A stretch of 64,000 bases of DNA, from the IMG/VR virus record IMGVR_UViG_3300030108_004854, positions 1-64,000 of that record; one strand, 5' to 3'. Positions 10,514 through 26,476 of the stretch are shown here, in pieces. The position numbers and the translations under genes were made by a program. The stretch is from a virus. The notes under the pieces are model-generated. The model was not told the DNA's origin. It did no database searches and was given only the letters and a program-made list of their open reading frames with translations. Each line of letters starts with the position of its first letter. The stretch's first letter is position 1.

Positions 10514-10527
10514 TCTTGATTGATTAA

Positions 10528-10558
10528 CCTGGGCATGGCTTAGCCAGTAAGTCCCAGG
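10528..10558 (+). ncRNA. UAAG-bulged hairpin motif A, copy 1
   Basis: CCTGGG-CA-TGGC-TTA-GCCA-G-TAAGT-CCCAGG. Confidence 0.65.
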
Positions 10559-10572
10559 CTATCCACAGACCA

Positions 10573-10656
10573 GAGCGAAAGCTCGAACTGCAGGTTGGTT
10601 CACCTGCTCACTCAAACACCGGAGCGAAAGCTCGAACTGCAGGTTGGTTCACCTGC
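10573..10656 (+). repeat. two identical 35-bp structured direct repeats
   Basis: GAGCGAAAGCTCGAACTGCAGGTTGGTTCACCTGC at 10573-10607 and 10622-10656. Confidence 0.9.
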
Positions 10657-10685
10657 ATTCACAGTACACTTCATCACACTTAACG

Positions 10686-11078
10686 ATGAACATTTTCAAA
10701 GCCGCAACACTCCTTGTACCACAGATCGTCGCTAACTACGACGACGAGACAAGGCACAACAAGGTAGCTGCCACCTGGACCGACCAGGAAGGTTACCGCA
10801 CAACGTACGGCGTGGAGTTCCGCGCAGTACACAACTCAGAACGCATCGCTATCGAGCGAGGCACCAGACAAGAAGACGGTAGCTTTGTCTACGTTGCACC
10901 CAATGGCAACGTTCATACCTGCACCTACGAACGCTTCATGGCCATTGCCAAAGCGCAAGGTGAGCAGGCAATGCACGCACAGTACCGTCGCAATCCACAC
11001 CAGGCTCACTACCAACAAGACACACAATCGCAGGCTTACGAGCGTGTGAATGTGTGGGTACATGAGCCTGCCAACTAA
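10686..11078 (+). CDS. early hypothetical protein
   Basis: ORF of the track (10644..11078); ATG 10686 follows a CATCACAC leader. Confidence 0.7.
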   Translation: MNIFKAATLLVPQIVANYDDETRHNKVAATWTDQEGYRTTYGVEFRAVHNSERIAIERGTRQEDGSFVYVAPNGNVHTCTYERFMAIAKAQGEQAMHAQYRRNPHQAHYQQDTQSQAYERVNVWVHEPAN

Positions 11079-11085
11079 TAACAAT

Positions 11086-11112
11086 GGGTTGCTACGGCGG
11101 CCCTTTCTTTTT
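11086..11112 (+). terminator. intrinsic terminator
   Basis: GGGTTGC-TACG-GCGGCCC then TTTCTTTTT. Confidence 0.75.
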
Positions 11113-11123
11113 ATCTATCCACA

Positions 11124-11348
11124 ATGACTATGGACCTTTACCTAGTAATCCAGTCAACCGATTTCAACGGTGACGGATACTTCCAAGAATTTATTCTTGG
11201 TATCTACGAAGACGGCGATGCAGCTAAACAGGTGCTACATAAACTCATTAAAGAACATGAGGCTGAAGAACCTCATTGCCAAGCTGACATAGATACAGAG
11301 TACTTTATCAAAGAGATGCCACTAATCCCTGCAAAGGTAATCCAATGA
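11124..11348 (+). CDS. early hypothetical protein
   Basis: 74 aa acidic ORF, ATGA-coupled to the next gene. Confidence 0.7.
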   Translation: MTMDLYLVIQSTDFNGDGYFQEFILGIYEDGDAAKQVLHKLIKEHEAEEPHCQADIDTEYFIKEMPLIPAKVIQ

Positions 11349-11683
11349 TTACTACTATCAAGACCTACAAAGACAATGGTCCGTACTTACATCAAGAAAG
11401 GTTTGACTACACAGTCGATAACCTATCTGACTTTATCAAACAAGTACGCACCATCATGGAGAGCCAAGACTCTGATGTCATTGGCGTCTATCACGACGAC
11501 ACATTCATAGGCGGATGGACACAGGAATGTGACTATGAACCCGACTATGAAAATGGCGGATACTACTGCGTATCAGCTGAATACGTCAGACCACAACCAA
11601 ACAGCTTTGACTGGGAGTGCATCAAGAAGTATTGCTTCCATTCAGGCACCCCTGTCAAAACCACCATCGATTCAATCACATGA
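11345..11683 (+). CDS. early hypothetical protein
   Basis: 112 aa, coupled start/stop. Confidence 0.7.
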   Translation: MITTIKTYKDNGPYLHQERFDYTVDNLSDFIKQVRTIMESQDSDVIGVYHDDTFIGGWTQECDYEPDYENGGYYCVSAEYVRPQPNSFDWECIKKYCFHSGTPVKTTIDSIT

Positions 11684-11871
11684 CAACTAACAACATAGAC
11701 AACAAAGTCATCAAGATCACCTGCCGAGATGCCTACGAATATGTAGACATCTTGGAATCAGAGATCAAGATGCTGATCAAGAAAGATATTGTTGGTCCAT
11801 CATTAATCAAACATTATCAAGATCTTCGTGATCGCATAAACATTGCTATCCACACCTATCATCATTCCTAA
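11680..11871 (+). CDS. early hypothetical protein
   Basis: ATG overlaps the previous stop. Confidence 0.6.
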   Translation: MTTNNIDNKVIKITCRDAYEYVDILESEIKMLIKKDIVGPSLIKHYQDLRDRINIAIHTYHHS

Positions 11872-12035
11872 TGACTACCTACAAAATCATTCGCTTCTAT
11901 CACCCATCACAGGGTAAATACAATGAGACAGTTGAGACTGGCCTCACACTAGAAGAAGCCCAAGCATGGTGCAAAGACCCATCCACACGCAAAGACAACA
12001 CGTTCTTTGACGGCTACGAGGAGGAGTACAAATGA
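11871..12035 (+). CDS. small phage protein (GLTLEEAQAWC motif)
   Basis: 54 aa MTTYKIIRFY...GLTLEEAQAWCKDPSTR..., translated by hand, coupled to the previous stop. Confidence 0.65.
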   Translation: MTTYKIIRFYHPSQGKYNETVETGLTLEEAQAWCKDPSTRKDNTFFDGYEEEYK

Positions 12036-12191
12036 ACATCTACAACAATGACGACACAACCAAACGTGACTGCGATATTGTTTACGGTGCATTAACCGTA
12101 AGCACTGCAGTATTATTTCCACCGTTAGCAATTATATCCCTCGGGATGTGGTTTGCCGACAGACAACACTATCCATCACACAATACCAAAG

Positions 12192-12452
12192 ATGACAACA
12201 ACAACTAAACAAATCAGAGAAGAAGCTATTAATAGTGCCATCGAGAAAGATTGGCACGTTGCATCAGAAGGCACTGACTTCACTGCATGTGTTATCGCAT
12301 GGCACAAAGACCCAGCTACTAATTGGTGCCGCGTACTTACTGTTGTTGACGGTCAGTACCAAACAGAAACTATACGTTGCACACCAACAGTTGTTGGTTC
12401 AGGTTATGTAACTGACCATCTCAATGATTTTAAACTTACAACTCAATCATGA
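12192..12452 (+). CDS. early hypothetical protein
   Basis: ORF of the track; likely ATG 12192. Confidence 0.6.
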   Translation: MTTTTKQIREEAINSAIEKDWHVASEGTDFTACVIAWHKDPATNWCRVLTVVDGQYQTETIRCTPTVVGSGYVTDHLNDFKLTTQS

Positions 12453-12561
12453 CAATTCAAATAGTACGTGGTAACAACCTAAAGTACGTTACTGTTGACA
12501 GCTACAAAGCACCGGGCATACGTAATAGTATTGCCCGCTTTATCTTTCACTTATTACACAA

Positions 12562-12780
12562 ATGACTGAACGCAGAACCCAACAACAAGAGCATTTAGTT
12601 CAACCATTGACACAAACTGATGTTCACATGGTTGAACTACTAGCTCAATTACAAGGTGTACTTCCACGCACAGTTATTGAAATTGCATTACATGAATGGC
12701 TTGAAGCTAACTTCATGCGCATTAATTCATTGCATCGTAATGCAAAAGAGATCCACAATCAACTTAATTCAAAAACATGA
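12562..12780 (+). CDS. small hypothetical protein, possibly ribbon-helix-helix
   Basis: 72 aa; the PRTVIEIALHEWLE segment is RHH-like. Confidence 0.5.
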   Translation: MTERRTQQQEHLVQPLTQTDVHMVELLAQLQGVLPRTVIEIALHEWLEANFMRINSLHRNAKEIHNQLNSKT

Positions 12781-12827
12781 AACAACACAAGCACATCCCT
12801 TCTCCTTTCAACAAACAATCTCTAAGT

Positions 12828-12841
12828 AACAGCCAACAGCC
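12828..12841 (+). promoter_or_regulatory. AACAGCCAACAGCC box
   Basis: exact intergenic copy. Confidence 0.65.
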
Positions 12842-12891
12842 TCTTGATTGATAAGTTTTACTTATCATTGCGTACACTTAATCACACCACA

Positions 12892-13194: not shown

Positions 13195-13198
13195 AACA

Positions 13199-13528: not shown

Positions 13529-13567
13529 TCACACCACATTAAATCTAATCACATCACATCAAACTCA

Positions 13568-13960: not shown

Positions 13961-13981
13961 GCCGACTAGTACATATGAATT

Positions 13982-14250
13982 ACTACAACATAGTTGTGTA
14001 TCACCATGTACCAGCTATGTTGTAGTTGTTGTGCAATAAAGAGTAGATTTTCTTTATCTATAAAGATCTGTACATTGTGTGCTAGTACATAAGACCCACC
14101 ATATTATTTATATTCTGTACATTTGTAAGTAATTTCTGTACACTTTGTGCTTATTAATTCTTTACATAGCAGTCCCTCACTACAACCACTCACAAATGTA
14201 CAGTTTTCTATATAAATAAAATATATACCCCCCAACTACTCACAACTACA
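13982..14250. repeat. non-coding palindromic element with CTGTACA(T/C)T(T)GT(G) repeats, origin-like
   Basis: direct copies at 14068, 14115 and 14136, inverted copy at 14191, plus a 15-bp hairpin at 13982/14012. Confidence 0.7.
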
Positions 14251-14295
14251 CACAACTCTGTATCAACACGATACATTCATTCTTTAACAAGAAGT

Positions 14296-14309
14296 AACAG
14301 CCAACAGCC
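14296..14309 (+). promoter_or_regulatory. AACAGCCAACAGCC box
   Basis: exact intergenic copy 14 nt before motif A copy 2. Confidence 0.65.
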
Positions 14310-14323
14310 TAATTATTAAGTAT

Positions 14324-14352
14324 CCTGGCATTGCTTGGCATGTAAGCCCAGG
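14324..14352 (+). ncRNA. UAAG-bulged hairpin motif A, copy 2
   Basis: CCTGG-CATTGCTTGGCATG-TAAGC-CCAGG. Confidence 0.65.
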
Positions 14353-14388
14353 TATCCATCACATCACACCACACAACAGGAGACAGTT

Positions 14389-14589
14389 ATGTCCCGCATC
14401 AAAAGCTGGATTCACAACCAACTCGACAAACGAAACATGCTCAGGGAAGACATGTACTACAACGCAGACATCGCTTATGAACTAGAGCAGGCCATGCGTG
14501 AAGAAATGGAAGAACCTCAAAACTCAGAAAATCTAGACATCGACCCTAACACCCAATCAACCAATGAATCAAACAACGTACCATTCTGA
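14389..14589 (+). CDS. acidic early protein ending in VPF
   Basis: ATG after AGGAG; 66 aa. Confidence 0.6.
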   Translation: MSRIKSWIHNQLDKRNMLREDMYYNADIAYELEQAMREEMEEPQNSENLDIDPNTQSTNESNNVPF

Positions 14590-14658
14590 CGAATTCATCA
14601 CGGTAATCATTGCAATCATCGCAACACTATTCACTGTTTTAATCAACAACACAATCAA

Positions 14659-15057
14659 ATGGAAACCATCAACATCCACAACCTACACAACCAAGGACTT
14701 GTTGCCTACATACAACGATACCCTCGTAGTGGAGCAGCAAGATATTTCCTCAACCAATACAAAGTTCACGAAGAATGGGAAGATGAAGAACCAACATCAA
14801 TCAAAATCCACCAGGTCTCGCAAGCCTATGGTGGCCCAGAAGAAGGTGGATGGTGGTACTCGACAGGTGAGGCGCAATCAACTCACTTCATCTTCAGCAA
14901 GAAAGGATGTATCAAGCGATGTATCGAACTCATTGATACCTATAACTTAACGAACCAACCTTCTATTGAAACATCACAAGGTAACTTTGCGTATGAACTT
15001 ACACTAGGCACAGGATACGCAAAAAATTATCCTACAGAACGTCCACATTACGAGTAA
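14659..15057 (+). CDS. early hypothetical protein
   Basis: 132 aa with a YGGPEEGGWWY motif and ending RPHYE. Confidence 0.7.
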   Translation: METINIHNLHNQGLVAYIQRYPRSGAARYFLNQYKVHEEWEDEEPTSIKIHQVSQAYGGPEEGGWWYSTGEAQSTHFIFSKKGCIKRCIELIDTYNLTNQPSIETSQGNFAYELTLGTGYAKNYPTERPHYE

Positions 15058-15063
15058 TCAGTA

Positions 15064-15102
15064 CTGGGCATTGTATTTTCCCCGACTACATGTAAGGCCC
15101 AG
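15064..15102 (+). ncRNA. UAAG-bulged hairpin motif A, copy 3
   Basis: CTGGG-CATTGTA..TACATG-TAAGG-CCCAG. Confidence 0.65.
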
Positions 15103-15126
15103 AGAATCACATCACCTTTAATTACC

Positions 15127-15345
15127 ATGCCTAATCGCTATCGTGTCAAGTACAAACATGATCCACCGCCAAATCCTATCCCCGGTGAAAATTACACTGT
15201 TGGTGCAGGTATCTGGTCTGCCAACATTCGTGCCCATGACATTGATGATGCACGACATCAGATCCTGAAGAACTTTCCTTACAAAAGAGCTGATGGAAAG
15301 ATAGTCAACAGAATCATTGTATCCTGTCGCAAAATCTACTACTGA
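15127..15345 (+). CDS. early hypothetical protein
   Basis: 72 aa after motif A and an ACATCAC leader. Confidence 0.65.
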   Translation: MPNRYRVKYKHDPPPNPIPGENYTVGAGIWSANIRAHDIDDARHQILKNFPYKRADGKIVNRIIVSCRKIYY

Positions 15346-15348
15346 CTC

Positions 15349-15675
15349 ATGCCTAAAAACATCGTTCCAGATGAAACTCCGTCACCTGACGACCTACAAG
15401 GACTATATGGACTCGCTCAAGCTACAAAGAAGTTTGTCGAGCAAGGCACACCACCAGCTTTTGCTGTCTTTATTAATCCAAAGACTGGCAAAACTTATTG
15501 CACTACTCCAGCACAACTTGAAGGTGGTACTGCACCAGATCAAAAGACTATTGACGCCTTAATCAAAACCATTAACATCAATGACCCGAATTCAACAGCA
15601 CGTCTTCAACAGGGAAGCAGTGAGCAGGAGGGGAGGAGCCCCGACGTACGGGATAACGGAGACACCAAAACGTAA
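15349..15675 (+). CDS. early hypothetical protein
   Basis: 108 aa ORF. Confidence 0.55.
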   Translation: MPKNIVPDETPSPDDLQGLYGLAQATKKFVEQGTPPAFAVFINPKTGKTYCTTPAQLEGGTAPDQKTIDALIKTININDPNSTARLQQGSSEQEGRSPDVRDNGDTKT

Positions 15676-15849
15676 GCGTCCTAAATCTAAAGGAAATCTA
15701 ATGTTACTTAAGGAGTTGAATGAGCGAATCAGTTGACCACTACATCGAGTACAGAGATGACATCATGCGTATCTGCCGTGAGTATCAACTAGAAACTCGT
15801 TGCAGTAATGCATTAGTTGCATCGATGTTAATGGATCTAGCACACCGCA

Positions 15850-16128
15850 TTGAAATTAATGACAAAGCGATCTGCCTTCAACTTTGACAAAGACATCTTC
15901 GGTTTTAATGTAACCGAGCATGGCATCAAAAGCTACAGTAAATCATTTAAGGTTGGTCCATTTAGACAAACGATCAACCTTAATCTTGGCAATGGTCATG
16001 TAAAAGGTACGACATCGATACCTGGCACAGGCTTAGCCAAACGCTACAATATCAGTGACAAAGACTGGCATGACTGGTTTCCGGAAGAGCCTGACTTTGG
16101 ACACAAGCCTCCCATGTGGGAGGAGTAA
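15850..16128 (+). CDS. DUF4236-like protein
   Basis: SFKVGPFRQTINL...TTSIPGTGL resembles the DUF4236 pattern. Confidence 0.5.
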   Translation: MKLMTKRSAFNFDKDIFGFNVTEHGIKSYSKSFKVGPFRQTINLNLGNGHVKGTTSIPGTGLAKRYNISDKDWHDWFPEEPDFGHKPPMWEE

Positions 16129-16140
16129 CAGCCAACAGCC
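16127..16140 (+). promoter_or_regulatory. AACAGCCAACAGCC box
   Basis: exact copy 8 nt before motif B copy 1. Confidence 0.65.
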
Positions 16141-16148
16141 TGGTTGTT

Positions 16149-16175
16149 AGACCTAGGCAAGTCTTTAAACTGTTG
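16149..16175 (+). ncRNA. small H-type pseudoknot motif B, copy 1
   Basis: AGAC-CT-AGGCA-A-GTCT-TTAAAC-TGTTG. Confidence 0.55.
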
Positions 16176-16195
16176 TACACAACACCACATCACAC

Positions 16196-16465
16196 ATGGC
16201 GTACATCACTGATAGACAACAAGACTTCATCATCACTTTGTACAAAAGAGTAGATGAAATTCACTTGTTAGCTTCCAAGCTAGACATGCATGATCCACAG
16301 CGGCTCAAATATTCTGGTGCTGCTGATGAGCTGCTGCGACTTTCTGATCGACTGAAACTTCAGTGGTTGCAAGAAGCTGAGTTACTGGAATCAGTAAAAC
16401 AACAAATTACTGATGAACCAATCCCATCTATTACACCAGAGGAAGAGTATGCAATCAATGCCTGA
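16196..16465 (+). CDS. early hypothetical protein
   Basis: 89 aa ORF. Confidence 0.65.
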   Translation: MAYITDRQQDFIITLYKRVDEIHLLASKLDMHDPQRLKYSGAADELLRLSDRLKLQWLQEAELLESVKQQITDEPIPSITPEEEYAINA

Positions 16466-16748
16466 AGTAATTACTGTACACAACTGCGAGCTTGACATTC
16501 GTGATCTGGATTACGGCACTAGTTCTTGGATCGTGTCTGCAACCGTTGCTGACATGCAATTGGTACGGCCTGCTGTCATGCATCCTGCTGACATAGCTGA
16601 GCCAGAAGAGCGTGGACCTGCACAATGCAGTGCCATCTTTGAACTAGATGAAGTATCAGGTGATGAACAACCACCTAACGATCCAGTTGCCCTTCGTCAA
16701 TACATTCAAGATATGAATCTTGATTGGGACATAGACGAAGAAAACTAA
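16458..16748 (+). CDS. acidic hypothetical protein
   Basis: ORF of the track; likely ATG 16458. Confidence 0.65.
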   Translation: MPEVITVHNCELDIRDLDYGTSSWIVSATVADMQLVRPAVMHPADIAEPEERGPAQCSAIFELDEVSGDEQPPNDPVALRQYIQDMNLDWDIDEEN

Positions 16749-16753
16749 CCAAT

Positions 16754-16780
16754 AGACCTGAGCATGTCTTTAAACTGCTC
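16754..16780 (+). ncRNA. small H-type pseudoknot motif B, copy 2
   Basis: AGAC-CT-GAGCA-T-GTCT-TTAAAC-TGCTC. Confidence 0.6.
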
Positions 16781-16805
16781 TTACTACATCACACCAAACT
16801 ACACA

Positions 16806-18638
16806 ATGAAATTCCAACTGCCTGACCAGATTCAGATGGAGGTCATGAGCTATGACCAGACACGTAAGCGTCTAGCCAAACAACAACGTGACGAAGAAGC
16901 AAGGCGTGGCAATATCAATAGAACCAAAGCTGCTAAATATCCCAAAGGTAATGTCATCTCACTAGGTCTAATCCCTGATGACATTGTTAGTACCAGAGAA
17001 ATGCAAGAAGCCATTGACTTTATCAATGGCACCACAATAAAGAATACAATCAGTCGATTTAGTTACATGGAAGATCCACCAGCTGGACAAACTCGTTTGC
17101 ATGCTGTGTTGTATTGGACAAAACAATATTGGGTCGCAGCATGGATGCCTAAGCGCAAAGATGATGGCTACTTGTATGGCATATCAGTTGCATTTAAAGA
17201 TACAGAAACAGCAAGGAAACAAATGCAGACTAATGAAAGATTATTTGTTAATCGTAAAAGCGGAAGTAAATCATTGATAGATGATCCTGACTTGCAAATG
17301 AGTAAGCGTAAGATTGGTCGAACCAACTGGCTAGTTACAACACAGTTCATTACCCAAGAAGAGATTGAAGCTGGCTATACAACGAATTACATACGTGAAG
17401 TTGATATGAATCACACAATAGAAAGATACAAAGAGCGTACACAACTACATTCAGAAGCAATCATGGAGCTATGGCGTAACATCATGGCTGGTGTACCTCA
17501 ATGGGATCACATTAGGTACAACAATAATGATTTTATACGGATGACAAAGCTAGGTAACAGTATTAAATATGTTGTTAATGATTGTCATATTCCATGTATG
17601 ACACATGAAACCATGTGTAAATTTGAACATACTAATGAGTTCTATCACAAAGTATTCAGTGAATATGGAGAATATGACTGCATTGCACCAGAGTTCTTTA
17701 ACTCACCGTGGTTCCGTAGAAAAGTTAACAAAATGGTTAGTGATATGTCAGTGGCATTTGAGATGGCTGATCCAATCAAAGCATCGATGAAACCTATCGT
17801 TGCACCATTATCCGATATGCATCATTACTTACAAGGAGTTAATGAAATGTATAAAGCTTATCCGTTCTGTGACATTAACCATTTAATTGCTAACGAACAC
17901 CTACTTGAACGTGTTAAGTTTCATATGCCTACTTTAAATATCAGCGAATACGCGCATCGATATCTAACAGAAAATGTGCCGCCAGAACGGTTTATTAATA
18001 TGCTGAAGCAACATCATGATTATTTGATTGCAGAAAGAGCCAAACAAAATCAAGATTCATATAATCATCACTACGATGAAGACGACATTAGTGGTAACCC
18101 ACGGATGTATTGGAGACATTGGGCTGACTCAATGAATATGCTTAATCAAGTGTTAAGACACAATGAAAGAACACCAGAAAATATATTACCTACTGAACCA
18201 AAACGTTATCGCATTAATGAATGGCATGACTTACTAATGAGTCAGACCTGGAAGCTTCGTAACCCTAATGAAAAACTTCCACAGAAACTATTCCCTCAAC
18301 CAGTCAAAGCTGAAAGTGACATGGGCACTTTCACATTCTTCCAGCCCATTGACACGCATCAGGTGGCTGAGTGGGGACAGGCTATGCGGAACTGCGTTGG
18401 TAGTGGTAGCTATGCAGAAGGTGTCAGAAAATTCAGGCACATTATTCTGCTAGCGATGGTTGATAACAAGCCACGATTTACCATGCAACTTACGGTTGAT
18501 AACGGAGAGATCAATATTGATCAATGCACAACGCTACGCAATGGTGGTCAGGATTACAAACTGACAGCAGATGAAAACACTTGTCTCAAGACAGCGTTCG
18601 CTAAAGCGTTGCAGTTCAGAGAGATTCAGCTACGCTGA
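16806..18638 (+). CDS. PcfJ-like domain protein
   Basis: C-terminal EWGQAMRNCVGSGSY motif preceded by EWHD, typical of PcfJ-like proteins; start moved from 16764 to the ATG after the leader. Confidence 0.75.
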   Translation: MKFQLPDQIQMEVMSYDQTRKRLAKQQRDEEARRGNINRTKAAKYPKGNVISLGLIPDDIVSTREMQEAIDFINGTTIKNTISRFSYMEDPPAGQTRLHAVLYWTKQYWVAAWMPKRKDDGYLYGISVAFKDTETARKQMQTNERLFVNRKSGSKSLIDDPDLQMSKRKIGRTNWLVTTQFITQEEIEAGYTTNYIREVDMNHTIERYKERTQLHSEAIMELWRNIMAGVPQWDHIRYNNNDFIRMTKLGNSIKYVVNDCHIPCMTHETMCKFEHTNEFYHKVFSEYGEYDCIAPEFFNSPWFRRKVNKMVSDMSVAFEMADPIKASMKPIVAPLSDMHHYLQGVNEMYKAYPFCDINHLIANEHLLERVKFHMPTLNISEYAHRYLTENVPPERFINMLKQHHDYLIAERAKQNQDSYNHHYDEDDISGNPRMYWRHWADSMNMLNQVLRHNERTPENILPTEPKRYRINEWHDLLMSQTWKLRNPNEKLPQKLFPQPVKAESDMGTFTFFQPIDTHQVAEWGQAMRNCVGSGSYAEGVRKFRHIILLAMVDNKPRFTMQLTVDNGEINIDQCTTLRNGGQDYKLTADENTCLKTAFAKALQFREIQLR

Positions 18639-18640
18639 CT

Positions 18641-18694
18641 GAGATTTAGGCAGCCGAGTAACAATGTTGTTGCGTCAGGCGTAAGCCCTATCTC
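18641..18694 (+). ncRNA. UAAG-bulged hairpin motif A, copy 4, directly 5' of the tRNA
   Basis: GAGA-TT-TAGG-CAGCC...GGCG-TAAGC-CCTA-TCTC. Confidence 0.55.
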
Positions 18695-18697
18695 ATT

Positions 18698-18785
18698 GGG
18701 AGTGTGGCGGAATTGGTAGACGCATCGGACTTAAAATCCGTGGACTGTTATGGTCATGCGAGTTCAAGTCTCGCCACTCCTACCA
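18698..18785 (+). tRNA. trnL: tRNA-Leu (anticodon UAA)
   Basis: acceptor GGGAGTG/CACTCCT, D-loop AATTGGTAGA, anticodon arm CGGA-CTTAAAA-TCCG, long variable arm, GTTCAAGT T-loop, encoded CCA. Confidence 0.95.
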
Positions 18786-18805
18786 ATCATTTATTACACA
18801 ACACT

Positions 18806-18982
18806 ATGGCAATCATTACTAAGAAAAGTAAAGCATCTAATGCGAAAAGCAACAACCATGAAAACCGCAGAGAGTTTGGAGGCTTAAGCCCCCGTCTCAT
18901 GAGAAGACTTAGGTCTCGTCAAGCAGCTAAGGCAAAGAGGGTGTCCTCTCACAGTGATCAGGCTGCAAGAGGATTCGCTTAA
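18806..18982 (+). CDS. small basic protein
   Basis: 58 aa, Lys/Arg rich; start after the tRNA. Confidence 0.55.
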   Translation: MAIITKKSKASNAKSNNHENRREFGGLSPRLMRRLRSRQAAKAKRVSSHSDQAARGFA

Positions 18983-19104
18983 CCAGCACCAGGAAACTAC
19001 AAAAACTGATGCTCCCTCAGGACTGACGTAGTTCTTCTGCGTCCCAACACATTCTAAATACATTTGTCTATGCATTGTAAACTCAGCCCGTCGATTTATT
19101 TTCC

Positions 19105-19341
19105 ATGACAAAACCAGGGCCGAGAGCGACGGCACCTCGTTTCAAAGTTGGTGATCGTGTATTACACAAATCCAACCCAATGAATAACGTTGCACGTTGC
19201 AGAGCTGGGGTAGTAACCCAAGTGATGTACAAAAAAAACAGCAGAGGACACAAACAACCCTTTGTTGAAATTAAATTCGATCACTCACAGCGACCAGAAA
19301 TCTTTATGTCTATTCGTGTTATGCACGAAACAAAAGATTGA
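19105..19341 (+). CDS. SH3/KOW-like small protein
   Basis: RFKVGDRV...GVVTQV...VEIKFD pattern. Confidence 0.6.
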   Translation: MTKPGPRATAPRFKVGDRVLHKSNPMNNVARCRAGVVTQVMYKKNSRGHKQPFVEIKFDHSQRPEIFMSIRVMHETKD

Positions 19342-19661
19342 TGGCTTACGTACACATCAATCATGTTAAAGAACATGAAGAAATTCTTGTTGGCCCACGT
19401 GGTGGTGTTTATGTCATCCGTAAAGGCAGACAAGTAACTGTTACAGACAAACCAATTACACGCGATAAGCATTACAAACCCAAACGTGGTGCTTACAATC
19501 GTTTCACTCAACATCAAATGAATGCAATCACAGGTTCAACTGAAATGGGTAACACCACAAGCAGAAAACGAAATCGTAGAGATGGCCAGAGTGTCAGCTC
19601 CAAAAAACGCAAAGAACATGGAGACAGGTCCAAAGCTTTTACGTTATCTCATCAAACATAA
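19338..19661 (+). CDS. small basic protein with GPRGGxY motif
   Basis: EEILVGPRGGVYVIRKG; 3' part overlaps thyX. Confidence 0.45.
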   Translation: MMAYVHINHVKEHEEILVGPRGGVYVIRKGRQVTVTDKPITRDKHYKPKRGAYNRFTQHQMNAITGSTEMGNTTSRKRNRRDGQSVSSKKRKEHGDRSKAFTLSHQT

Positions 19662-20187
19662 GCACTGGTCGCCATTTGAAATGGCTAACATGTGCGTTAC
19701 AATATCAACTTCAAGGGGAATTGCACCACAGATACTGAGGCATCGCAGCTTCACGTTCCAGGAATTCTCTTTGAGATACGCCAATACAAATCAAATTGGT
19801 CGTGTTGAAACGCCTGAGTTACGCGCTCAAGATTTTAAAAACAGGCAAAACTCCACTCCTGATCTTAAAAATAAGTTGGGTGTTGAAAGATACGCTGCAT
19901 TACAGCGTCTTGTTTCTATTCATATGGAAGATGCTGAGCATCTATACCAAGAACTGTTGAGTGCTGGTGTTGCAAAAGAGTCTGCACGTTTTGTGTTACC
20001 TCTGGCTGCACCAAGCAAACTTCATATGAATGGAACACTCAGGTCATGGGTGCATTACATCGATCTGCGTACTGACAATGGTACGCAAAAAGAACACAAA
20101 GAGATTGCAGAGCAATGCAAAGCAATCTTCCAACAACAATTTCCTATTATTTCTGAAGCATTATGGCCAGACCAACAGTCCAATTAG
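19522..20187 (+). CDS. thyX: FAD-dependent thymidylate synthase
   Basis: HWSPFE and RHRSFTFQEFSLRY ThyX motifs; ESARFVLP. Confidence 0.95.
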   Translation: MQSQVQLKWVTPQAENEIVEMARVSAPKNAKNMETGPKLLRYLIKHKHWSPFEMANMCVTISTSRGIAPQILRHRSFTFQEFSLRYANTNQIGRVETPELRAQDFKNRQNSTPDLKNKLGVERYAALQRLVSIHMEDAEHLYQELLSAGVAKESARFVLPLAAPSKLHMNGTLRSWVHYIDLRTDNGTQKEHKEIAEQCKAIFQQQFPIISEALWPDQQSN

Positions 20188-20498
20188 TTTGTTCCTGTTG
20201 TGGAACAATGTTTAAACGTGAATCAAGACGCGAACAGTATCGTGTTATGCACAGACATGCAGGTCCTTATTGCAGTAGAAGCTGTGCTTCTAAAAGCAAA
20301 AGAACTTATGATCGTGTTGCCGGTAGAGAACATCCAAACTCTATTCTTACTGAGAATGATGTTAGAAGGATACGCAGGCAACTTAAATATGGTGTGCCAG
20401 TTAAGAACATCATGATTCTTACTGGTATGTCTGAGAATTGTATTCGTTCAATTCAATACAGAAAAACTTGGAAGCACGTAAAAGATTATGCAGCTTGA
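20163..20498 (+). CDS. Zn-finger plus HTH protein (homing-endonuclease-associated domains)
   Basis: CSCCG..F, YCSRSC and NSILTENDVRRIR...RKTWKHV; no HNH core seen. Confidence 0.6.
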   Translation: MARPTVQLVCSCCGTMFKRESRREQYRVMHRHAGPYCSRSCASKSKRTYDRVAGREHPNSILTENDVRRIRRQLKYGVPVKNIMILTGMSENCIRSIQYRKTWKHVKDYAA

Positions 20499-20670
20499 AG
20501 ATGCACTTGATCTGATCTACAAAGGTCAAACCAACGTAGCTGTCATGGCAAAAAAAGTAGGCGTCTCATTAGATGAAATGAAACGCCTGTTTGGTTATTA
20601 CGTTAGTCAGCGACCTATTGATCCAGATGTATGGCAAGCTGATGTAAAACCAAGCTGGCCCTGGGCTTAA
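20488..20670 (+). CDS. small HTH-like protein
   Basis: 60 aa, NVAVMAKKVGVSLDEMKR. Confidence 0.6.
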   Translation: MQLEDALDLIYKGQTNVAVMAKKVGVSLDEMKRLFGYYVSQRPIDPDVWQADVKPSWPWA

Positions 20671-20823
20671 TTACTTAAGCCGTTTACGATCTAATTTGGC
20701 TTGGAACTTTTCACGTTCCTGTTTAATTTCATCCCTTGATACCCAAACCGAATGGATTGAATTCAATGTCGGGCTGGTACGTTCGTACTTAACGCCTCGA
20801 TAAGTCAGTGTCTTGGTAGACAT
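20671..20823 (-). CDS. DUF4278-family small protein
   Basis: 50 aa MSTKTLTYRGVKYER..., translated by hand; LTYRGVxY signature, GGAGG SD, riboswitch upstream. Confidence 0.85.
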   Translation of the reverse strand: MSTKTLTYRGVKYERTSPTLNSIHSVWVSRDEIKQEREKFQAKLDRKRLK

Positions 20824-20839
20824 GATGTCCTCCGCTAAA

Positions 20840-20892
20840 ACCTAGACCCCGTTCCCTGTCTAGTGAATTGCGCCCCAGTGGGGTGAACGTAC
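20840..20892 (-). ncRNA. Downstream-peptide motif (glutamine-II riboswitch)
   Basis: minus strand CGTTCA-CCCC-ACT-GGGG-CGCA-ATTCA-CTAGAC-AG-GGAACG-GG-GTCTAG; CGTTC/GAACG and CTAGAC/GTCTAG pairings; precedes a YRG peptide. Confidence 0.85.
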
Positions 20893-20946
20893 TTGTATTT
20901 TATCACTCATCTTAGAATGAACAAAGCACCTGTTTCAAAGATCACA

Positions 20947-23106
20947 ATGTCAATAGAAAGAGATCCGTACACTGGTGAAATAACTTATTACAATGACGCT
21001 ACTGGAGCTGAAATAACTGAAGCTGAGCATAACTTAGAGCGAGACCGCCAGGCACGTTCAGCAGGTTATGAATCATTTTATGATTACGTACGTCAGGTGC
21101 AAAGAGATATGGAGGAAGAAGCATCGGCATTCATGGAAGACGGTATACCAGATACACTGGATGCACAGGATTTTGAAAGAGCTGCTCTTGATCAACAACA
21201 ACTACAACAACAAGCAGATTTTATAGATCGGCTTGGTCTTAATGATCCACCCCGTGTAAATATGCAGGAGTTAACTCCTGATAACGTATACGAAATGCGT
21301 CAGCTTGGTTTTAATAGTGCACAAGTTTCAGATGCTATTGAACGAAGAAGCAGACAATTAGATGAAGCAGGTGTATCAGCTGAGGAAAGAAACTATAGAG
21401 CAAGAGGTTACGTCGGCAATGACAGATATTTATCTGGAACAGGTGAAGGTCAAACCCTACGGTTTCTTGATCCTGAAATGCAAGCACGTTTTGAAGCAGA
21501 TGTAGCAGCCGAAGAACAACGAATAAGACAAGAAAATAAACCTATCAATCGAGCACGTAGAACCTTAGCTGGAGTCAGAAATAATGTTATAGATTTTCCA
21601 CGGCAAACTGGCCTTTTACTTAATCAAGTTACTGATCGCATTGATGATAACATCACTCAAGTTGTTAGAGGCTATAGAAACATTCTTGATTTAGATCGTC
21701 CTGTTTATGATCCAAAATACCTTCCTGAAGGTGCTAACCCTGACTTTAATTACTACACACAACTACTAGAAGATTCACGTATAGGTTATTCACCTAGCAA
21801 TAAAATTAGAACTAATTTAATGTTACAACCTGATGGGCGTGGATATGATTTTAGCTTTCAAGGTCCAGAAGGTTTTGCAGATTCAAAGAAATTAAAAATT
21901 CAAAATCAAAGAACAGAAGACCTTATTGCAGGCAAGAAACAATATATAGCAGACTTGTATCGCAATAATGAAAAGGCTACTCATTCTATGACTCCTTTTA
22001 AAGATAGAATTGATCAAGAAAACCGAAAGATTAGAGATTATAGATATCGTATTAATTACAATAAGGATAAAATTAATACGATGAAATCACCTACCTATCA
22101 ACCCACTTTGGGTTACATGATAGGAACAGAACTAGATAAAGTAAAACCTGGAGAATACTTTAGTCAAAATCCTATAGGTGGACCAGGAGGTCAAAGAGAT
22201 AAATTGTATAGCAGAATGAGCAAAGGAGTATTGAAAGCTCAACCTTTTGGTTATGCAAAAGTACAACGTATAAATCCAACCACTTGGTTGCGTGATGATG
22301 TACCAATGGAATGGGACCCAGGAACTTTAAAAGACCCTGCAATACGAAAAGCATTTGGTGTACCCAAAGAAACCGATGTATCTATCTACCGTGATAGAAC
22401 AATGTTTGAGCAACCTATTTATCAAAAAGGCGGACCTCTTTCTTCAGGAAAAACAGCAGTCGCTCTTGGTTCGCATGAGTTTAGACTGCCACGTGCTCTT
22501 AGTAATGCAACATTAGGTGGCCTGTATGAATCTATACCATCTGCAGAAGTTATTAAAGCAACTGGTGAAGAAGGCATAGGTGCTGGTATTAAAACATATG
22601 CAAGTGAAATTATGGAAGGATTGCCTTACATGGCAGGTTTAGCTGGTGCTACTTATGTAGTTCCTGCATTAGCAAGTGTTGCACCACCAGTTCTTGGTGG
22701 ACTGGGCGTGTATGAAGCTGGTCGTTCTGTCAATGAATTAAGTAGACAAACAACAGGTGAAACTGCATTATCTAAACTTCAGCAAACAGCAGGCAAGGTA
22801 GCGCCAGGTGTCTTAGGTAAACCATCAACTGGTTCTGCTTATAGATATAACGAAGATGCTAGAGCAAAAGAAGAAAGGTTAAGAAAAATTGCAAGTGGTG
22901 AACTTGTTGAGCCAATCCCACAATTAAATGCTTATACCCCCTTACCAATTTCAATGGTTACTAGACCTCAACAAGAACTAGATGCTTATAGAGATCAACA
23001 GCCAACTGCATCTAACCCATTGGTTCAACGCATCCAACTTGCAGGTAAAAGATTCAATCCAGCTAGAGGTGAGTTTGGTTTAACTGAATTGTTTTTTGGA
23101 CAATAA
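20947..23106 (+). CDS. large hypothetical protein, virion-like composition
   Basis: about 720 aa; Gly/Ala hydrophobic C-terminal segments; start moved from 20893. Confidence 0.7.
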   Translation: MSIERDPYTGEITYYNDATGAEITEAEHNLERDRQARSAGYESFYDYVRQVQRDMEEEASAFMEDGIPDTLDAQDFERAALDQQQLQQQADFIDRLGLNDPPRVNMQELTPDNVYEMRQLGFNSAQVSDAIERRSRQLDEAGVSAEERNYRARGYVGNDRYLSGTGEGQTLRFLDPEMQARFEADVAAEEQRIRQENKPINRARRTLAGVRNNVIDFPRQTGLLLNQVTDRIDDNITQVVRGYRNILDLDRPVYDPKYLPEGANPDFNYYTQLLEDSRIGYSPSNKIRTNLMLQPDGRGYDFSFQGPEGFADSKKLKIQNQRTEDLIAGKKQYIADLYRNNEKATHSMTPFKDRIDQENRKIRDYRYRINYNKDKINTMKSPTYQPTLGYMIGTELDKVKPGEYFSQNPIGGPGGQRDKLYSRMSKGVLKAQPFGYAKVQRINPTTWLRDDVPMEWDPGTLKDPAIRKAFGVPKETDVSIYRDRTMFEQPIYQKGGPLSSGKTAVALGSHEFRLPRALSNATLGGLYESIPSAEVIKATGEEGIGAGIKTYASEIMEGLPYMAGLAGATYVVPALASVAPPVLGGLGVYEAGRSVNELSRQTTGETALSKLQQTAGKVAPGVLGKPSTGSAYRYNEDARAKEERLRKIASGELVEPIPQLNAYTPLPISMVTRPQQELDAYRDQQPTASNPLVQRIQLAGKRFNPARGEFGLTELFFGQ

Positions 23107-23109
23107 AAG

Positions 23110-23136
23110 CTAGGCATCTTTATGTGTAAGTCCTAG
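23110..23136 (+). ncRNA. UAAG-bulged hairpin motif A, copy 5
   Basis: CTAGG-CA..TG-TAAGT-CCTAG. Confidence 0.65.
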
Positions 23137-23155
23137 ACTACGCTTTATTTTATCC

Positions 23156-23581
23156 ATGCTTCCTGAAAATCAATTTCATTCCAATCAACCAATGCCGAAG
23201 CCTGCACCAGCAACTATTGATGTTGACAGGACTAAATACTATGACACTCAAGGTGTTGTAGACAGAACATTTATGAGTCGTTTTAGCATCATAAAAGCTG
23301 TAAAGAATGGTCGATTCCCTGCTCCAGAATTTAAAAAACAACGTCATTGCTTTTATTGCAAAAAGAAAGTAGATCAATGGATAGCAGATAATCCAAATTT
23401 TACTAACCTTCCTACACCAAGAACAACTACTACGCTTAATGTAACTTTTTCTGCAGCAGAATTAAAAATGATTAGTAATGCAGCTAAAGCATTGGGTTGT
23501 ACAGTAGATTTTTTTGTTGCAGATGCAACACTCTGGAAAGCCCGTGGCGTAAAAAAACGATTAGAATATGAAAATAATTAA
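23156..23581 (+). CDS. AlpA/excisionase-like DNA-binding protein with RHH-like C-terminus
   Basis: MSRFSIIKAVKNGRFPAP...VDQWI, then LNVTFSAAELKMISNAAKALG. Confidence 0.6.
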   Translation: MLPENQFHSNQPMPKPAPATIDVDRTKYYDTQGVVDRTFMSRFSIIKAVKNGRFPAPEFKKQRHCFYCKKKVDQWIADNPNFTNLPTPRTTTTLNVTFSAAELKMISNAAKALGCTVDFFVADATLWKARGVKKRLEYENN

Positions 23582-23634
23582 GGGGTTGCAATAAATAATA
23601 AATACCGTAGTCTTCTAAAAGATTCAACAAAACA

Positions 23635-23865
23635 TTGAGTTATTTAATTACTACGGTTATAAATGGTATTCCCCATGCTATTTATCCAAATTCAAATGCT
23701 GGTAAGTTTGAACTAATACAGATAGTAAAAGACAGTGAGATTTCAAAAGCTTTCTGTTCTCCAACTAAAACTGGTGCTGTTCAAATTCTTAATTGGATAA
23801 ATAAAAATGACCAACAGCTTTCATTACAAGAACTCTCAGTTCAACCTGAAGCCAAATTCCTTTAA
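23635..23865 (+). CDS. hypothetical protein
   Basis: 76 aa, TTG start. Confidence 0.5.
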   Translation: MSYLITTVINGIPHAIYPNSNAGKFELIQIVKDSEISKAFCSPTKTGAVQILNWINKNDQQLSLQELSVQPEAKFL

Positions 23866-25666
23866 TGAAAACTATCTCGTTTTTGATATTGAAACAAACG
23901 GATTATACGATGAAGCAACAGAGTTATTTTGCGTGGCAATACACGATGTCGTACGAAACGAAACTATTGGTTATGGGCCTGGGTCTATTGATAGGGCTAT
24001 TGACAGGTTGGCTTCTGCTACTTGTCTTATCGGTCACAATATAATTTTTTATGATTTACCAGTATTAAAAAAGTTACTAGACTTTAACACCACATCTCAT
24101 GTCATTGACACACTCATCTGCACCAGGCTCATTTGGCCCAAAGAAAAATTACAAGAAGTCGATACAGATCACTACCAAAATGTGCCACCTAAGCTCAGAG
24201 GGTCAGCCTCACTTAAGGCTTGGGGCTACAGACTTGGTAACTTCAAAGACAATTTTACCGATTTTTCTGCGTTCACCCCAGAAATGTTGGAGTACTGTAA
24301 ACAAGATTGTAATGTCACAACCTCTTTATACCACCTCATCACCACTGACCCAATCAAAGCTTCGGCTCTTCGGCTGGAACATGATTTCGCTCAAGCAATT
24401 AATAAACAAATTAGATCAGGCTTTCCTTTTGATACTAATCAATGTTTTAATTTTGTGGATGAACTTGAAGCTAGAAAAAAAATAGTTGAAACAGAACTTA
24501 CTACTAAAGCATTTCCTCCAATTCAACATGAAGAAATCGTAACACCAAAAGCATCAAACAAAACAAAAGGAATCATCAAGGGAGTGCCTTACACTAAAGT
24601 TACTGTTGAACATTTCAATCCTGCTTCACGACAACAAACAGTACGTCGTCTCCAAGATAAGTACGGCTGGGTACCAGAGGCAACAACAGAGAAAGGAAAT
24701 CCAATCTTAAATGATGATGTTCTTTCTCAACTTCCATACCCTGAAGCCAAGCTATTGGCTGAGTATCAGCTGCTAAAGAAACGTCTAGGACAGATCAAAG
24801 ATGGAGACAATGCATGGCTCAAACTTGTTGGTGACGATGGCAAAATGCACGGCGATCTTATTACCAATGGTTGTATCACCGGTCGTGCTAGCCATCGAAC
24901 TCCGAACATGGGGCAGATCCCAGCAGTTTATTCACCTTATGGTGATAGATGTCGTTCGTTATTTGGTCCCCCTCCTGGCCGCATTTTATTGGGTGCTGAT
25001 GCTAAGGCATTGGAACTTCGCTGCTTGGCTGGTTACTTAGCACTATGGGACGGCGGCGAGTATGGCGAAGTTGTCACTGATGACAGCCAAGACATTCACA
25101 CTTACAACCAACAACGATTCGGAGTTACTACACGTGACATTTCAAAACGACTACTCTACGCCGTACTTTACGGAGCTGGCTTCATCAAAGCCGGTACAAT
25201 CGTGGACCCAAAAGAAAAAAATCCCGACAAGCTTAAGCAGTTGGGAAGAGAAGCAATCATGGGTTTCATGGAAGGCGTCCCAGCGCTCCAAAAACTTAAA
25301 GCGACGCTCAAATCTAATCTTGAAAAGCGTGGGCACCTTATTGGTCTTGACCGTAGGCCTTTGTACTGTCGCTCTGAATTCAAGGCCTTAAATGTATTGC
25401 TTCAATCTGCTGGCGCAATTATCATGAAACAAGTTGTGGTTAATCTGCATCAGCTAACAGCTAACAGCCAATTAATATATGGATCTGATTGGGAACAACA
25501 CGCCATGATTCATGATGAAGTTCAGTTGTCTGTGCAACCAGATTTAGTACAGACAATTAAACCTCTGGTATTGGAATCATTTTTAAAAGCAGGAACGTTC
25601 TATGATTTCAAGTGTCTCATTGAAGGAGACATTAAAACAGGAGCTAACTGGGCATTGACACATTGA
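23807..25666 (+). CDS. polA: DNA polymerase family A (T7-like) with 3'-5' exonuclease
   Basis: exonuclease motifs FDIET, GHNIIFYD, YCKQD; polymerase motifs DAKALELR, RDISKRLLYAVLYGAG, IHDEVQ. Confidence 0.95.
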   Translation: MTNSFHYKNSQFNLKPNSFNENYLVFDIETNGLYDEATELFCVAIHDVVRNETIGYGPGSIDRAIDRLASATCLIGHNIIFYDLPVLKKLLDFNTTSHVIDTLICTRLIWPKEKLQEVDTDHYQNVPPKLRGSASLKAWGYRLGNFKDNFTDFSAFTPEMLEYCKQDCNVTTSLYHLITTDPIKASALRLEHDFAQAINKQIRSGFPFDTNQCFNFVDELEARKKIVETELTTKAFPPIQHEEIVTPKASNKTKGIIKGVPYTKVTVEHFNPASRQQTVRRLQDKYGWVPEATTEKGNPILNDDVLSQLPYPEAKLLAEYQLLKKRLGQIKDGDNAWLKLVGDDGKMHGDLITNGCITGRASHRTPNMGQIPAVYSPYGDRCRSLFGPPPGRILLGADAKALELRCLAGYLALWDGGEYGEVVTDDSQDIHTYNQQRFGVTTRDISKRLLYAVLYGAGFIKAGTIVDPKEKNPDKLKQLGREAIMGFMEGVPALQKLKATLKSNLEKRGHLIGLDRRPLYCRSEFKALNVLLQSAGAIIMKQVVVNLHQLTANSQLIYGSDWEQHAMIHDEVQLSVQPDLVQTIKPLVLESFLKAGTFYDFKCLIEGDIKTGANWALTH

Positions 25667-25680
25667 CATGTAAGCCCCAG
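25648..25680 (+). ncRNA. UAAG-bulged hairpin motif A, copy 6
   Basis: CTGGG-CAT..ATG-TAAGC-CCCAG spanning the polA stop. Confidence 0.65.
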
Positions 25681-25711
25681 ATCCTACAATCACATCACAC
25701 TATTAAAAACA

Positions 25712-26428
25712 ATGCACATTGCATTTCTTGTCGCTGAAGTCGTTGACAATCCACTGACTAAATATCAGGGGATGGACAATCGAATGAATGTTGTATCTCT
25801 TCGTTTACCTGCTGTAGGTAAAAAGAAAGTTGACACATTAATTGAATACAGGTCTTACAAAGAGATTAATCTTAGAGCGGGAGACTGTGTCCAAATTATG
25901 GATGCATCCATTCGCCACGATTACAAAACTAGAGAATGGTGGTTGATGGGAGGCAATCTTGAACGACGTGAAGCACCATGTCCTCCATACAACTATTGCA
26001 TATTTAGTGGTCGTGTGATCAAAGATCTAGATGTATCTGATCCACGCCAGTTTACTAGTACAGAAAGTGGTTTTCTTATTGCTAAAACCACACTCAGTAT
26101 TACAGCTGGTGGAGGTGAATCAGATTTAATTCCAATTACTGCAATCAATTCATCTGATGCTAAATACAAACCAGCTCAATTATTAGCTGATATGGCAGCA
26201 CGTAAAGGAATGGGTTTAACAGTTAGAGGAACATTAGTTACTGATTCTTGGACAGACAAAGAATCTGGAGAGATTAGATATAAAACCGAAATTATGTTAA
26301 AAGGTTTTACCATGGCTCCTAAAGCTAAAGCTCAAGAAATTAAACCACGTGCTGAAGTGCCTGTTGGTGCGGAACCAAAGTCACTTTGGAAACCGTTAGA
26401 CAGTGAGGATGACAACGATCCTTTTTGA
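25712..26428 (+). CDS. ssb: single-stranded DNA-binding protein (tandem OB-fold-like)
   Basis: KGMGLTVRGTLVTDSWTDKESGEIRYKTEI; acidic tail EDDNDPF. Confidence 0.75.
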   Translation: MHIAFLVAEVVDNPLTKYQGMDNRMNVVSLRLPAVGKKKVDTLIEYRSYKEINLRAGDCVQIMDASIRHDYKTREWWLMGGNLERREAPCPPYNYCIFSGRVIKDLDVSDPRQFTSTESGFLIAKTTLSITAGGGESDLIPITAINSSDAKYKPAQLLADMAARKGMGLTVRGTLVTDSWTDKESGEIRYKTEIMLKGFTMAPKAKAQEIKPRAEVPVGAEPKSLWKPLDSEDDNDPF

Positions 26429-26443
26429 AGCTATACTTCCAGC

Positions 26444-26476
26444 CTAGGCATTTGCCCTTGTCAATGTAAGCCCTAG
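26444..26476 (+). ncRNA. UAAG-bulged hairpin motif A, copy 7
   Basis: CTAGG-CATT..AATG-TAAGC-CCTAG. Confidence 0.65.

Follow-up and report, generated by a model that had tools for sequence, protein, structure and literature searches.

The 64,000-nt stretch of viral DNA analysed here, referred to below as the window, comprises bases 1-64000 of the 73,064-nt IMG/VR record IMGVR_UViG_3300030108_004854, which CheckV rates as 93% complete. Between approximately 9.2 and 30 kb it holds a plus-strand block of many small open reading frames (ORFs) together with replication genes, and within this block a short hairpin motif recurs seven times, each copy having a complementary lower stem, a variable upper stem-loop and an invariant UAAG on the 3' side of the loop between them. 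A preliminary description had listed these seven copies, and all of them are found at the positions it gave and on the plus strand. They are set out here together with a degenerate half copy; scores refer to a covariance model, R1, built from 43 distinct 28-nt copies from other phages and none from the window.

10528..10558, plus strand: copy 1, CCTGGG-CA-TGGCTTAGCCA-GTAAGT-CCCAGG; begins 4 nt past the stop of ORF 10371-10523; R1 26.6 bits, E 5e-4
14324..14352, plus strand: copy 2, CCTGG-CA-TTGCTTGGCAT-GTAAGC-CCAGG; ends 36 nt before the ATG at 14389; R1 16.4 bits, E 0.11
15064..15102, plus strand: copy 3, CTGGG-CA-...-GTAAGG-CCCAG; begins 6 nt past the stop of ORF 14659-15057, with 24 nt between its end and the ATG at 15127; R1 30.2 bits
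18647..18691, plus strand: copy 4, T-TAGG-CA-(long stem-loop)-GTAAGC-CCTA-T; begins 8 nt past the stop of the PcfJ-like gene, with 6 nt between its end and tRNA-Leu; R1 partial match, 10.4 bits
23110..23136, plus strand: copy 5, CTAGG-CA-TCTTTATGT-GTAAGT-CCTAG; begins 3 nt past the stop of a 737-aa ORF, with 19 nt between its end and the ATG at 23156; R1 36 bits, E 3e-6
25648..25680, plus strand: copy 6, CTGGG-CA-...-GTAAGC-CCCAG; shares its first part with the final 19 nt of the DNA polymerase gene, with 31 nt between its end and the ATG of the single-stranded DNA-binding protein (SSB) gene; R1 31.9 bits
26444..26476, plus strand: copy 7, CTAGG-CA-...-GTAAGC-CCTAG; begins 15 nt past the SSB stop, with 22 nt between its end and the ATG at 26499; R1 30.1 bits
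16151..16158, plus strand: decayed half copy, CCTAGGCA without GTAAG and the 3' arm, downstream of the box TAACAGCCAACAGCCT

The lower stems are of the types already noted, CTGGG/CCCAG, CTAGG/CCTAG and CCTGG/CCAGG, with TAGG/CCTA in addition, and UAAG is indeed invariant in the window; across the family the G that precedes it is sometimes A, as in the phage S-EIV1. One detail requires correction, as the copy that was said to end 3 nt before a tRNA (copy 4) in fact ends 6 nt before the 5' end at 18698. The pattern GGCA-N(3-33)-GTAAGNCC matches the window 8 times, always on the plus strand and never on the minus strand, against a mean of 0.43 in shuffled sequences, none of 100 of which reaches 8; the entire record gives the same 8 matches and the backwards control gives 0. 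The eighth match (33493-33517) lacks complementary arms, lies inside a minus-strand ORF and is missed by R1, and we regard it as due to chance. R1 itself recovers the copies at 23110, 25648, 15064, 26444 and 10529 with E values of 3e-6 to 5e-4, and those at 14325 and 18649 at E 0.11 and 2.6 respectively, with nothing else convincing across the 64 kb.

Taking the family as a whole, the consensus is CUGGG-CA-N(stem-loop)N'-GUAAGU-CCCAG, most commonly 26-28 nt in size, with CA invariant on the 5' side and UAAG invariant within a bulge of 5-6 nt on the 3' side. The lower stem is 5-7 bp (5 bp, lengthened by one pair in 61% of copies) and the upper stem in many cases 2-4 bp, and the insert between the two conserved blocks varies from 5 to more than 40 nt. 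Many of the terminal loops are C(UUCG)G or GNRA, and UUCG and GNRA tetraloops point to RNA. The nucleotide after UAAG is U in 197 copies, C in 39, A in 13 and G in 8. There is no conservation in the flanks and no U-tract after the motif, T reaching only 40-50% at positions +2 to +4.

Covariation provides the evidence that this structure is selected. Because both arms were fixed in the patterns used to find the loci, lower-stem counts on such copies are biased; three tests are free of this bias. Arm types outside the search patterns are still complementary (CTT/AAG in 31 copies, ATG/CAT in 11 and TGT/ACA in 5). The upper stem was left free in the patterns, and here one pair is CG in 78 copies and UA in 16 with none unpaired, while the next is CG in 67, UA in 4, AU in 3 and GC in 3. 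When the same pattern is given a non-complementary 3' arm it finds 12 single matches, as against at least 119 loci for the complementary arm. For the upper stem, the covariation score is 0.170 compared with 0.066 after shuffling (0 of 500 shuffles reach it) and at most 0.079 with the partner column slid, and in a second alignment it is 0.239 compared with 0.114. Covariation of both stems is thus found in hundreds of copies from other phages, which gives good support to the view that the motif is an RNA element whose structure is selected. At the base of the upper stem the closing pair is U.U in 169 of 259 distinct copies, and otherwise G-C, C-G, A-U, U-A or G.U; minimum-energy folds pair C-G and A-U and leave the one-sided UAAGU bulge that had been drawn previously. 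Either loop model, the U.U closing pair or the one-sided bulge, may fit the data. G.U exceeds A.C both at the closing pair (14 vs 1) and at upper pairs 2-3 (21 vs 7), from which it follows that the folding strand is the sense strand.

Comparison of orthologous junctions, in phages whose polymerases are about 65% identical, leads to the same view, as the loop and lower stem are kept while the upper stem differs. The kept junctions are those after the homologue of ORF 14659-15057 (copy 3, kept in the loci L083, L153 and L142 with a different upper stem), after the polymerase gene (copy 6, kept in L083, L112 and L126) and after the SSB gene (copy 7, kept in L083 and L126). Copies homologous to copy 4 precede a tRNA in L112 and other loci. 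The presence of the motif varies at other junctions. The PcfJ-like gene follows a motif in L083, L126 and L153, precedes one in the window and is absent from L112.

The placement of the motif is close to regular at the level of single nucleotides. Intergenic copies number 340 of 364. Their upstream gene runs in the same direction in 298 cases and in the opposite one in 18, with no gene called in 24, and for the downstream gene the corresponding figures are 281, 21 and 38; the opposite-strand (apparently antisense) copies that were checked are ORF-calling artefacts in a GC-rich phage. The gap from stop codon to motif is 3 nt in 39 and 4 nt in 69 of the 232 copies scored, and the motif ends 21-32 nt before an ATG in 157 of 262, although these counts include related phages and the events are not independent. 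Counted per protein family, a stop gap of 3-4 nt occurs in 23 of 62 upstream families and a gap of 20-33 nt in 35 of 71 downstream families, these being the 62 and 71 protein clusters found on either side of the motif. In the loci and the window together, the motif ends 3-9 nt upstream of the mature 5' end at 29 of 37 tRNA genes (15 at 3 nt and 7 at 4 nt, so that 3-4 nt is the usual gap in relatives), and this is true of 28 of 35 tRNA-Leu(UAA) genes. That the motif is an RNA-level, sense-strand cis element is in our view well supported.

An exact scan of IMG/VR with CTGGGCAT-N(2-32)-GTAAGNCCCAG finds the motif in at least 119 loci, and the CTAGG/CCTAG version in 75. Many of these hold 2-5 copies, and 20 among the loci listed carry both lower-stem types; in two halves of a set of 181 loci, R1 gives 145 and 151 matches at E<=0.01. 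These relatives were reached via the DNA motif and not via peptide patterns from the polymerase, which recovered no close relatives. The nearest cultured relative of the window phage is the Synechococcus phage S-EIV1, with a polymerase identity of 58.5%, and all of the public runs found to cover window positions 14001-24000 (14 of 14) are DNA metagenomes.

At least three cyanophage groups carry the motif. The first, S-EIV1-like and including the window, comprises 59 loci that share at least three window proteins. In the second, 4-7 copies, recurring every 140-160 nt or so, form tandem arrays within about 740 nt of non-coding DNA upstream of a gene for a 167-aa protein; the repeating unit consists of the motif, about 90 variable nt, a second hairpin (GCCTGTACTTAACAGGC) and about 12 nt. 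Such arrays lie at 2918-3531 in L144 and 6225-6805 in L148, and also in L120, L150, L151, L158, L160, L162, L166 and L171, in records of 25-30 kb rated 66-77% complete. The spacers diverge between phages, while the hairpin GCCUGUACUUAACAGGC, about 12 nt ahead of each copy, is conserved and has a loop, ACUUA, complementary to the motif bulge UAAGU. A kissing interaction between the two was considered and dropped for the window phage, where ACTTAC is not enriched (40 occurrences vs 33 expected). The third group consists of relatives of the Synechococcus myovirus S-CBWM1 (capsid protein 66.9% identical), with one copy about 50 nt ahead of the major capsid gene in 27 loci. The fetched fragments yield no protein common to groups 1 and 3, or to groups 2 and 3, at E<=1e-4. 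A GC-rich phage (L058) also has one copy. Cultured S-EIV1, a phage of Synechococcus PCCC-A2c, has a single copy (KJ410740, 41439-41475, minus strand), with AUAAGU in its bulge, and cultured S-CBWM1 has none; the cultured relatives of motif carriers infect Synechococcus.

A pattern scan of 596 Gb of prokaryote genomes gives only scattered single matches across all sorts of taxa, at chance level, and BLAST of a 38-nt copy against GenBank phages returns chance matches only. Scanning the window with Rfam 15 at gathering thresholds finds only the tRNA and a Glutamine-II riboswitch, with no family at the motif, and scans at E<=10 (window 10-27 kb, L144, L083 and L002) find nothing at any copy, so that the match to a characterised family which might have removed its novelty is not seen. 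Searches of the openly readable literature found no description of the motif, nor did one for GTAAGTCC. The motif is an uncatalogued folded RNA signal.

The genes identified in the plus-strand block are as follows.

16764-18638, plus strand: PcfJ-like protein
18698-18785, plus strand: tRNA-Leu, anticodon UAA (ARAGORN; Rfam tRNA 57 bits), the downstream partner of copy 4
19522-20187, plus strand: ThyX
23807-25666, plus strand: family A DNA polymerase
25712-26428, plus strand: SSB
26499-27494, plus strand: DUF5895

Our preferred explanation, which we hold tentatively, is that the hairpin may serve as intercistronic RNA punctuation, that is, a processing or stability site read by a host factor. 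In this model the hairpin, on the sense strand of polycistronic phage transcripts, would mark the boundaries between cistrons, and its conserved asymmetric CA/UAAG loop would be recognised by a factor common to the hosts of unrelated cyanophages, for which an endoribonuclease or an RNA-binding protein of the host is the most plausible candidate. Cleavage of the transcript would fall within the element or next to it, or else the element would shield the transcript; the upstream cistron would retain a 3' hairpin, while the mRNA or tRNA that follows would be freed with a short defined leader. A host factor is favoured because unrelated phages of similar hosts carry the same motif, which suggests that the factor is shared by the carriers.

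A close parallel is with the early region of T7, where RNase III signals (R0.3, R0.5, R1, R1.1 and R1.3) separate genes, the 3' side of the loop being the cut site, which leaves a protective 3' hairpin on the upstream RNA. Like these, the motif is a hairpin with an asymmetric internal loop, intercistronic and co-oriented with the genes of a long early mRNA, and occurs several times per genome. However, T7 RNase III sites span about two helical turns, and such a double helix is not present in the modal 26-28 nt form, with its short stems and invariant CA/UAAG loop; the motif also differs in standing before tRNAs and a capsid gene and in being common to unrelated phages. The motif would work in the manner of the T7 intercistronic sites, but its helices are too short for it to be one of them. 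The preliminary description had offered an RNase III-type processing site as one interpretation of a structure-selected RNA element, and of these two ideas the structured element stands while the RNase III site is weakened, both by the size of the motif and by the failure to find an RNase III gene in the phage's own genome. Its two further suggestions, that proteins bind the site or that it blocks nucleases, may still hold. The REP/BIME palindromes of enterobacteria, which protect upstream mRNA from 3' exonucleases, similarly place many bulged-hairpin copies close behind stop codons; REPs, however, are chromosomal, have a GTAG head and are tied to RAYT transposases, and the motif is phage-borne.

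Several points weigh against the proposed punctuation. The helices are too short for canonical RNase III, and RNase P alone would already part a tRNA from the RNA upstream of it. The fetched loci are fragments, which leaves room for a shared phage-encoded partner in place of a host factor. When 151 cyanobacterial genomes are searched with R1, under strict filters and with only 50 candidates scored per genome, no match reaches E<=0.01, and there is accordingly no known host substrate that the motif might mimic. As the cultured relatives have one copy (S-EIV1) or none (S-CBWM1), the element must be dispensable for some members. Folding energies of single copies are unremarkable (z of -0.2 to -2.2), and the case for the element rests on covariation and not on stability. 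Finally, structure, conservation, strand and exact placement are seen in the sequences, and it is from them that we infer cleavage or protection and the nature of the factor.

Notwithstanding these points, the proposal would have some consequence. Cyanophages of picocyanobacteria shape carbon flow in oceans and lakes, and the expression of their long operons is little understood; here a compact covarying element with invariant loop bases and near single-nucleotide regularity of placement recurs in at least three phage lineages. If a host factor does read it, the motif would represent a common route by which unrelated phages use Synechococcus RNA metabolism, and might be put to use in cyanobacterial synthetic biology as an insulator or processing tag that is small and portable. 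Further testable questions arise from the way it is distributed, much like a cassette, and from its resemblance to the Syn5 promoter, both considered below.

An alternative that we consider unlikely is that the hairpin is an operator at which a regulatory RNA-binding protein governs how the downstream cistron is translated or coupled, as T4 RegA does for many early mRNAs. Protein sites typically present invariant unpaired nucleotides, as CA and UAAG are here, within a helical frame, the motif commonly ends at a distance from the ATG (21-32 nt) that corresponds to the 5' edge of the region covered by the 30S subunit, and with a stop gap of 3-4 nt terminating ribosomes would have to open the lower stem. 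The tRNA genes are difficult to accommodate, as 29 of the 37 have the motif immediately upstream where there is no translation to control, and so are the tandem arrays in non-coding DNA; because of these two settings a role in translation only does not fit. Nor do the fetched loci contain a protein family common to the three phage groups.

We also regard as doubtful the idea that the hairpin is a conserved junction for the gain, loss and exchange of genes (the tRNA among them), both within cyanophages and from one to another. It would then serve as a brief stretch of homology, the role proposed for certain stem-loops of T4-type phages, or as a folded single-stranded DNA site like the attC of integrons; such a role could coexist with one in RNA. 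The architecture parallels that of attC, a folded imperfect palindrome with a conserved outer or lower stem, an unpaired asymmetric spacer with extra bases, and a variable upper stem and terminal loop, which lies strand-specifically between cassette ORFs with unrelated genes flanking it. The motif likewise sits directly after a stop codon and shortly before the next start, is flanked by the 71 and 62 different gene families noted above, and is carried by phage groups without a detected common protein. Gene content differs at motif junctions, as with the PcfJ-like gene and with the 737-aa ORF that only the window has beside copy 5. Within the window there is in addition a longer repeated cassette made up of TAACAGCCAACAGCCT, 10-16 nt and the motif, in which the box occurs in four copies, with two intact motifs and one decayed. 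However, the 93%-complete genome contains neither a tyrosine recombinase such as an integron integrase (no PF00589 match) nor a Y1/HUH transposase of the RAYT kind (no PF01797 match, with a control positive in 7 of 14 genomes). The motif has no GTTRRRY-type core and no RYYYAAC partner, its core being CTRGG/CCYAG, and is much shorter than attC. The RNA-type UUCG/GNRA loops and the conservation at orthologous junctions point to an expressed RNA function, and intergenic insertions and deletions are to be expected in any case. A more specific form of the idea, in which the hairpin is a single-gene cassette boundary (an attC-like site or recombination hot spot) for exchange of individual genes and tRNA-Leu between unrelated cyanophages and doubles as the RNA signal by which each inserted gene can be expressed, seems to us more doubtful again; if true, it would imply an integron-like gene-cassette system in lytic phages without a known integrase.

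The box itself deserves comment. The 16-mer TAACAGCCAACAGCCT occurs on the plus strand at 10499, 12827, 14295 and 16126, where 0.01 copies are expected; two lie 10-16 nt upstream of copies 1 and 2, one precedes the decayed half motif at 16151 and one an unrelated small hairpin. Together, box and motif look like a duplicated intergenic cassette.

The T4-type stem-loops just mentioned, termed PeSLs, are described in two reports as short conserved intergenic elements, repeated in plastic early regions beside variable ORFs, which are proposed to mediate modular shuffling (PMC2839356, PMC4122927), and in one of them as a terminator stem-loop joined to a sigma-70 early promoter (PMC4122927). The motif resembles them in the first respect and differs in lacking a U-tract, in that only 1 of 7 copies overlaps a sigma-70-like site, and in having its conservation in an internal loop.

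A pause, attenuation or antitermination signal acting on the host RNA polymerase, comparable to nut or put, appears quite improbable. Such a signal would account for the co-orientation with transcription and the repetition along a long early operon that also holds canonical terminators at 10313-10330 and 11086-11103, and the host RNA polymerase is presumably machinery common to all of the carrier groups. However, no U-tract follows the motif, copy 1 lies beyond the first terminator, and at least seven copies per genome, with some directly before tRNAs, are unlike nut or put.

Least probable of the explanations to which we give any weight, and in our judgement very unlikely, is that the motif is a promoter for an unrecognised phage RNA polymerase, with TGGGCA and GTAAG joined by extrusion of the variable hairpin and the start at the G of GTAAG. 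The suggestion arises from a likeness to the promoter of the Syn5 RNA polymerase, reported as ATTGGGCACCCGTAA followed by G (PMC3950665) and present twice in Syn5 as TGGGCA-CCC-GTAAG, which shares both blocks with the motif in the same order. Syn5 is also a phage of marine Synechococcus, and one of its two copies begins 6 nt past a stop codon. The placement of the motif would suit a promoter as well: it precedes tRNAs and, in 27 loci, the major capsid gene, stands 21-32 nt from the ATGs downstream, and in the tandem arrays comes after hairpins that resemble terminators. Against this, the T7-like RNA polymerase domain PF00940 is absent from 11 of 11 motif-bearing records, including the window's own genome, although most of the other records are incomplete (the Syn5 control gives 4e-77), and the 737-aa orphan ORF does not resemble the Syn5 enzyme. 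Syn5 promoters are contiguous 15-bp duplexes that have neither stem and give no R1 match. The variable insert of 5 to more than 40 nt, the covariation of positions +2 to +6 with the upstream arm, and the excess of G.U are features expected of RNA rather than duplex DNA, and again no protein common to the three phage groups was detected. We regard the Syn5 likeness as an unexplained resemblance, of low probability as a rival. Both Syn5 promoters (L182 4945-4975 and 44813-44840) are followed from +2 by a hairpin, CAAGG...CCTTG and CAAGAGA...TCTCTTG respectively.

Other candidates can be set aside briefly. Single-subunit RNA polymerase promoters of the Syn5/T7 type need a contiguous duplex of about 15-23 bp, and the motif blocks are interrupted; for sigma-70, only copy 6 overlaps a promoter-like site (the only strong match) and copy 7 follows one, with 27 such sites region-wide vs 46 in shuffles. 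No copy appears in a scan for intrinsic terminators and none has a U-tract, and no conserved TAC follows the motif as an NtcA site (GTA-N8-TAC) would have. A kink-turn, with its 3-nt bulge and the tandem G.A/A.G pairs after it, is excluded by the consensus, in which the bulged strand is UAAG-N-CC and the opposite strand CA, so that tandem G.A pairs are impossible. A likeness to the site of ribosomal protein S8 or to the 11-nt tetraloop receptor is improbable, since the opposite strand fits neither.

A number of other features of the block were seen. Canonical intrinsic terminators lie at 10313-10340 and 11086-11112 (plus strand), near the start of the plus-strand operon, and early transcription must therefore pass through them or restart beyond them. 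Between copy 1 and the 130/144-aa ORF there is an exact 35-nt direct repeat (10573-10607 and 10622-10656, plus strand) containing two hairpins, GAGC-GAAA-GCUC and GCAGGU-UGGUUC-ACCUGC, so that, like the motif, it is both structured and repeated. Ahead of many start codons in the block lie leaders rich in CA and poor in G, of the type ATCACATCAC (13529-13567, 14353-14388, 15103-15126 and 25681-25711), and a Shine-Dalgarno sequence is not evident in them.

The 737-aa ORF (20893-23106, plus strand), which copy 5 follows, fills a place that holds only about 270 nt in relatives; no Pfam, PHROG, PDB or Atlas relative was found for it, nor a homologue among the fetched relatives. Immediately before it, at 20841-20892 of the window but on the minus strand and so opposite to the gene block, is a match to the Glutamine-II (downstream-peptide) riboswitch of 44 bits, after which, on that strand, comes a 50-aa ORF (20671-20823). 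The match is kept at the same place in L083 (6267-6325, minus strand), which suggests a glutamine-sensing antisense mini-gene within the replication module and lends support to a cyanobacterial host.

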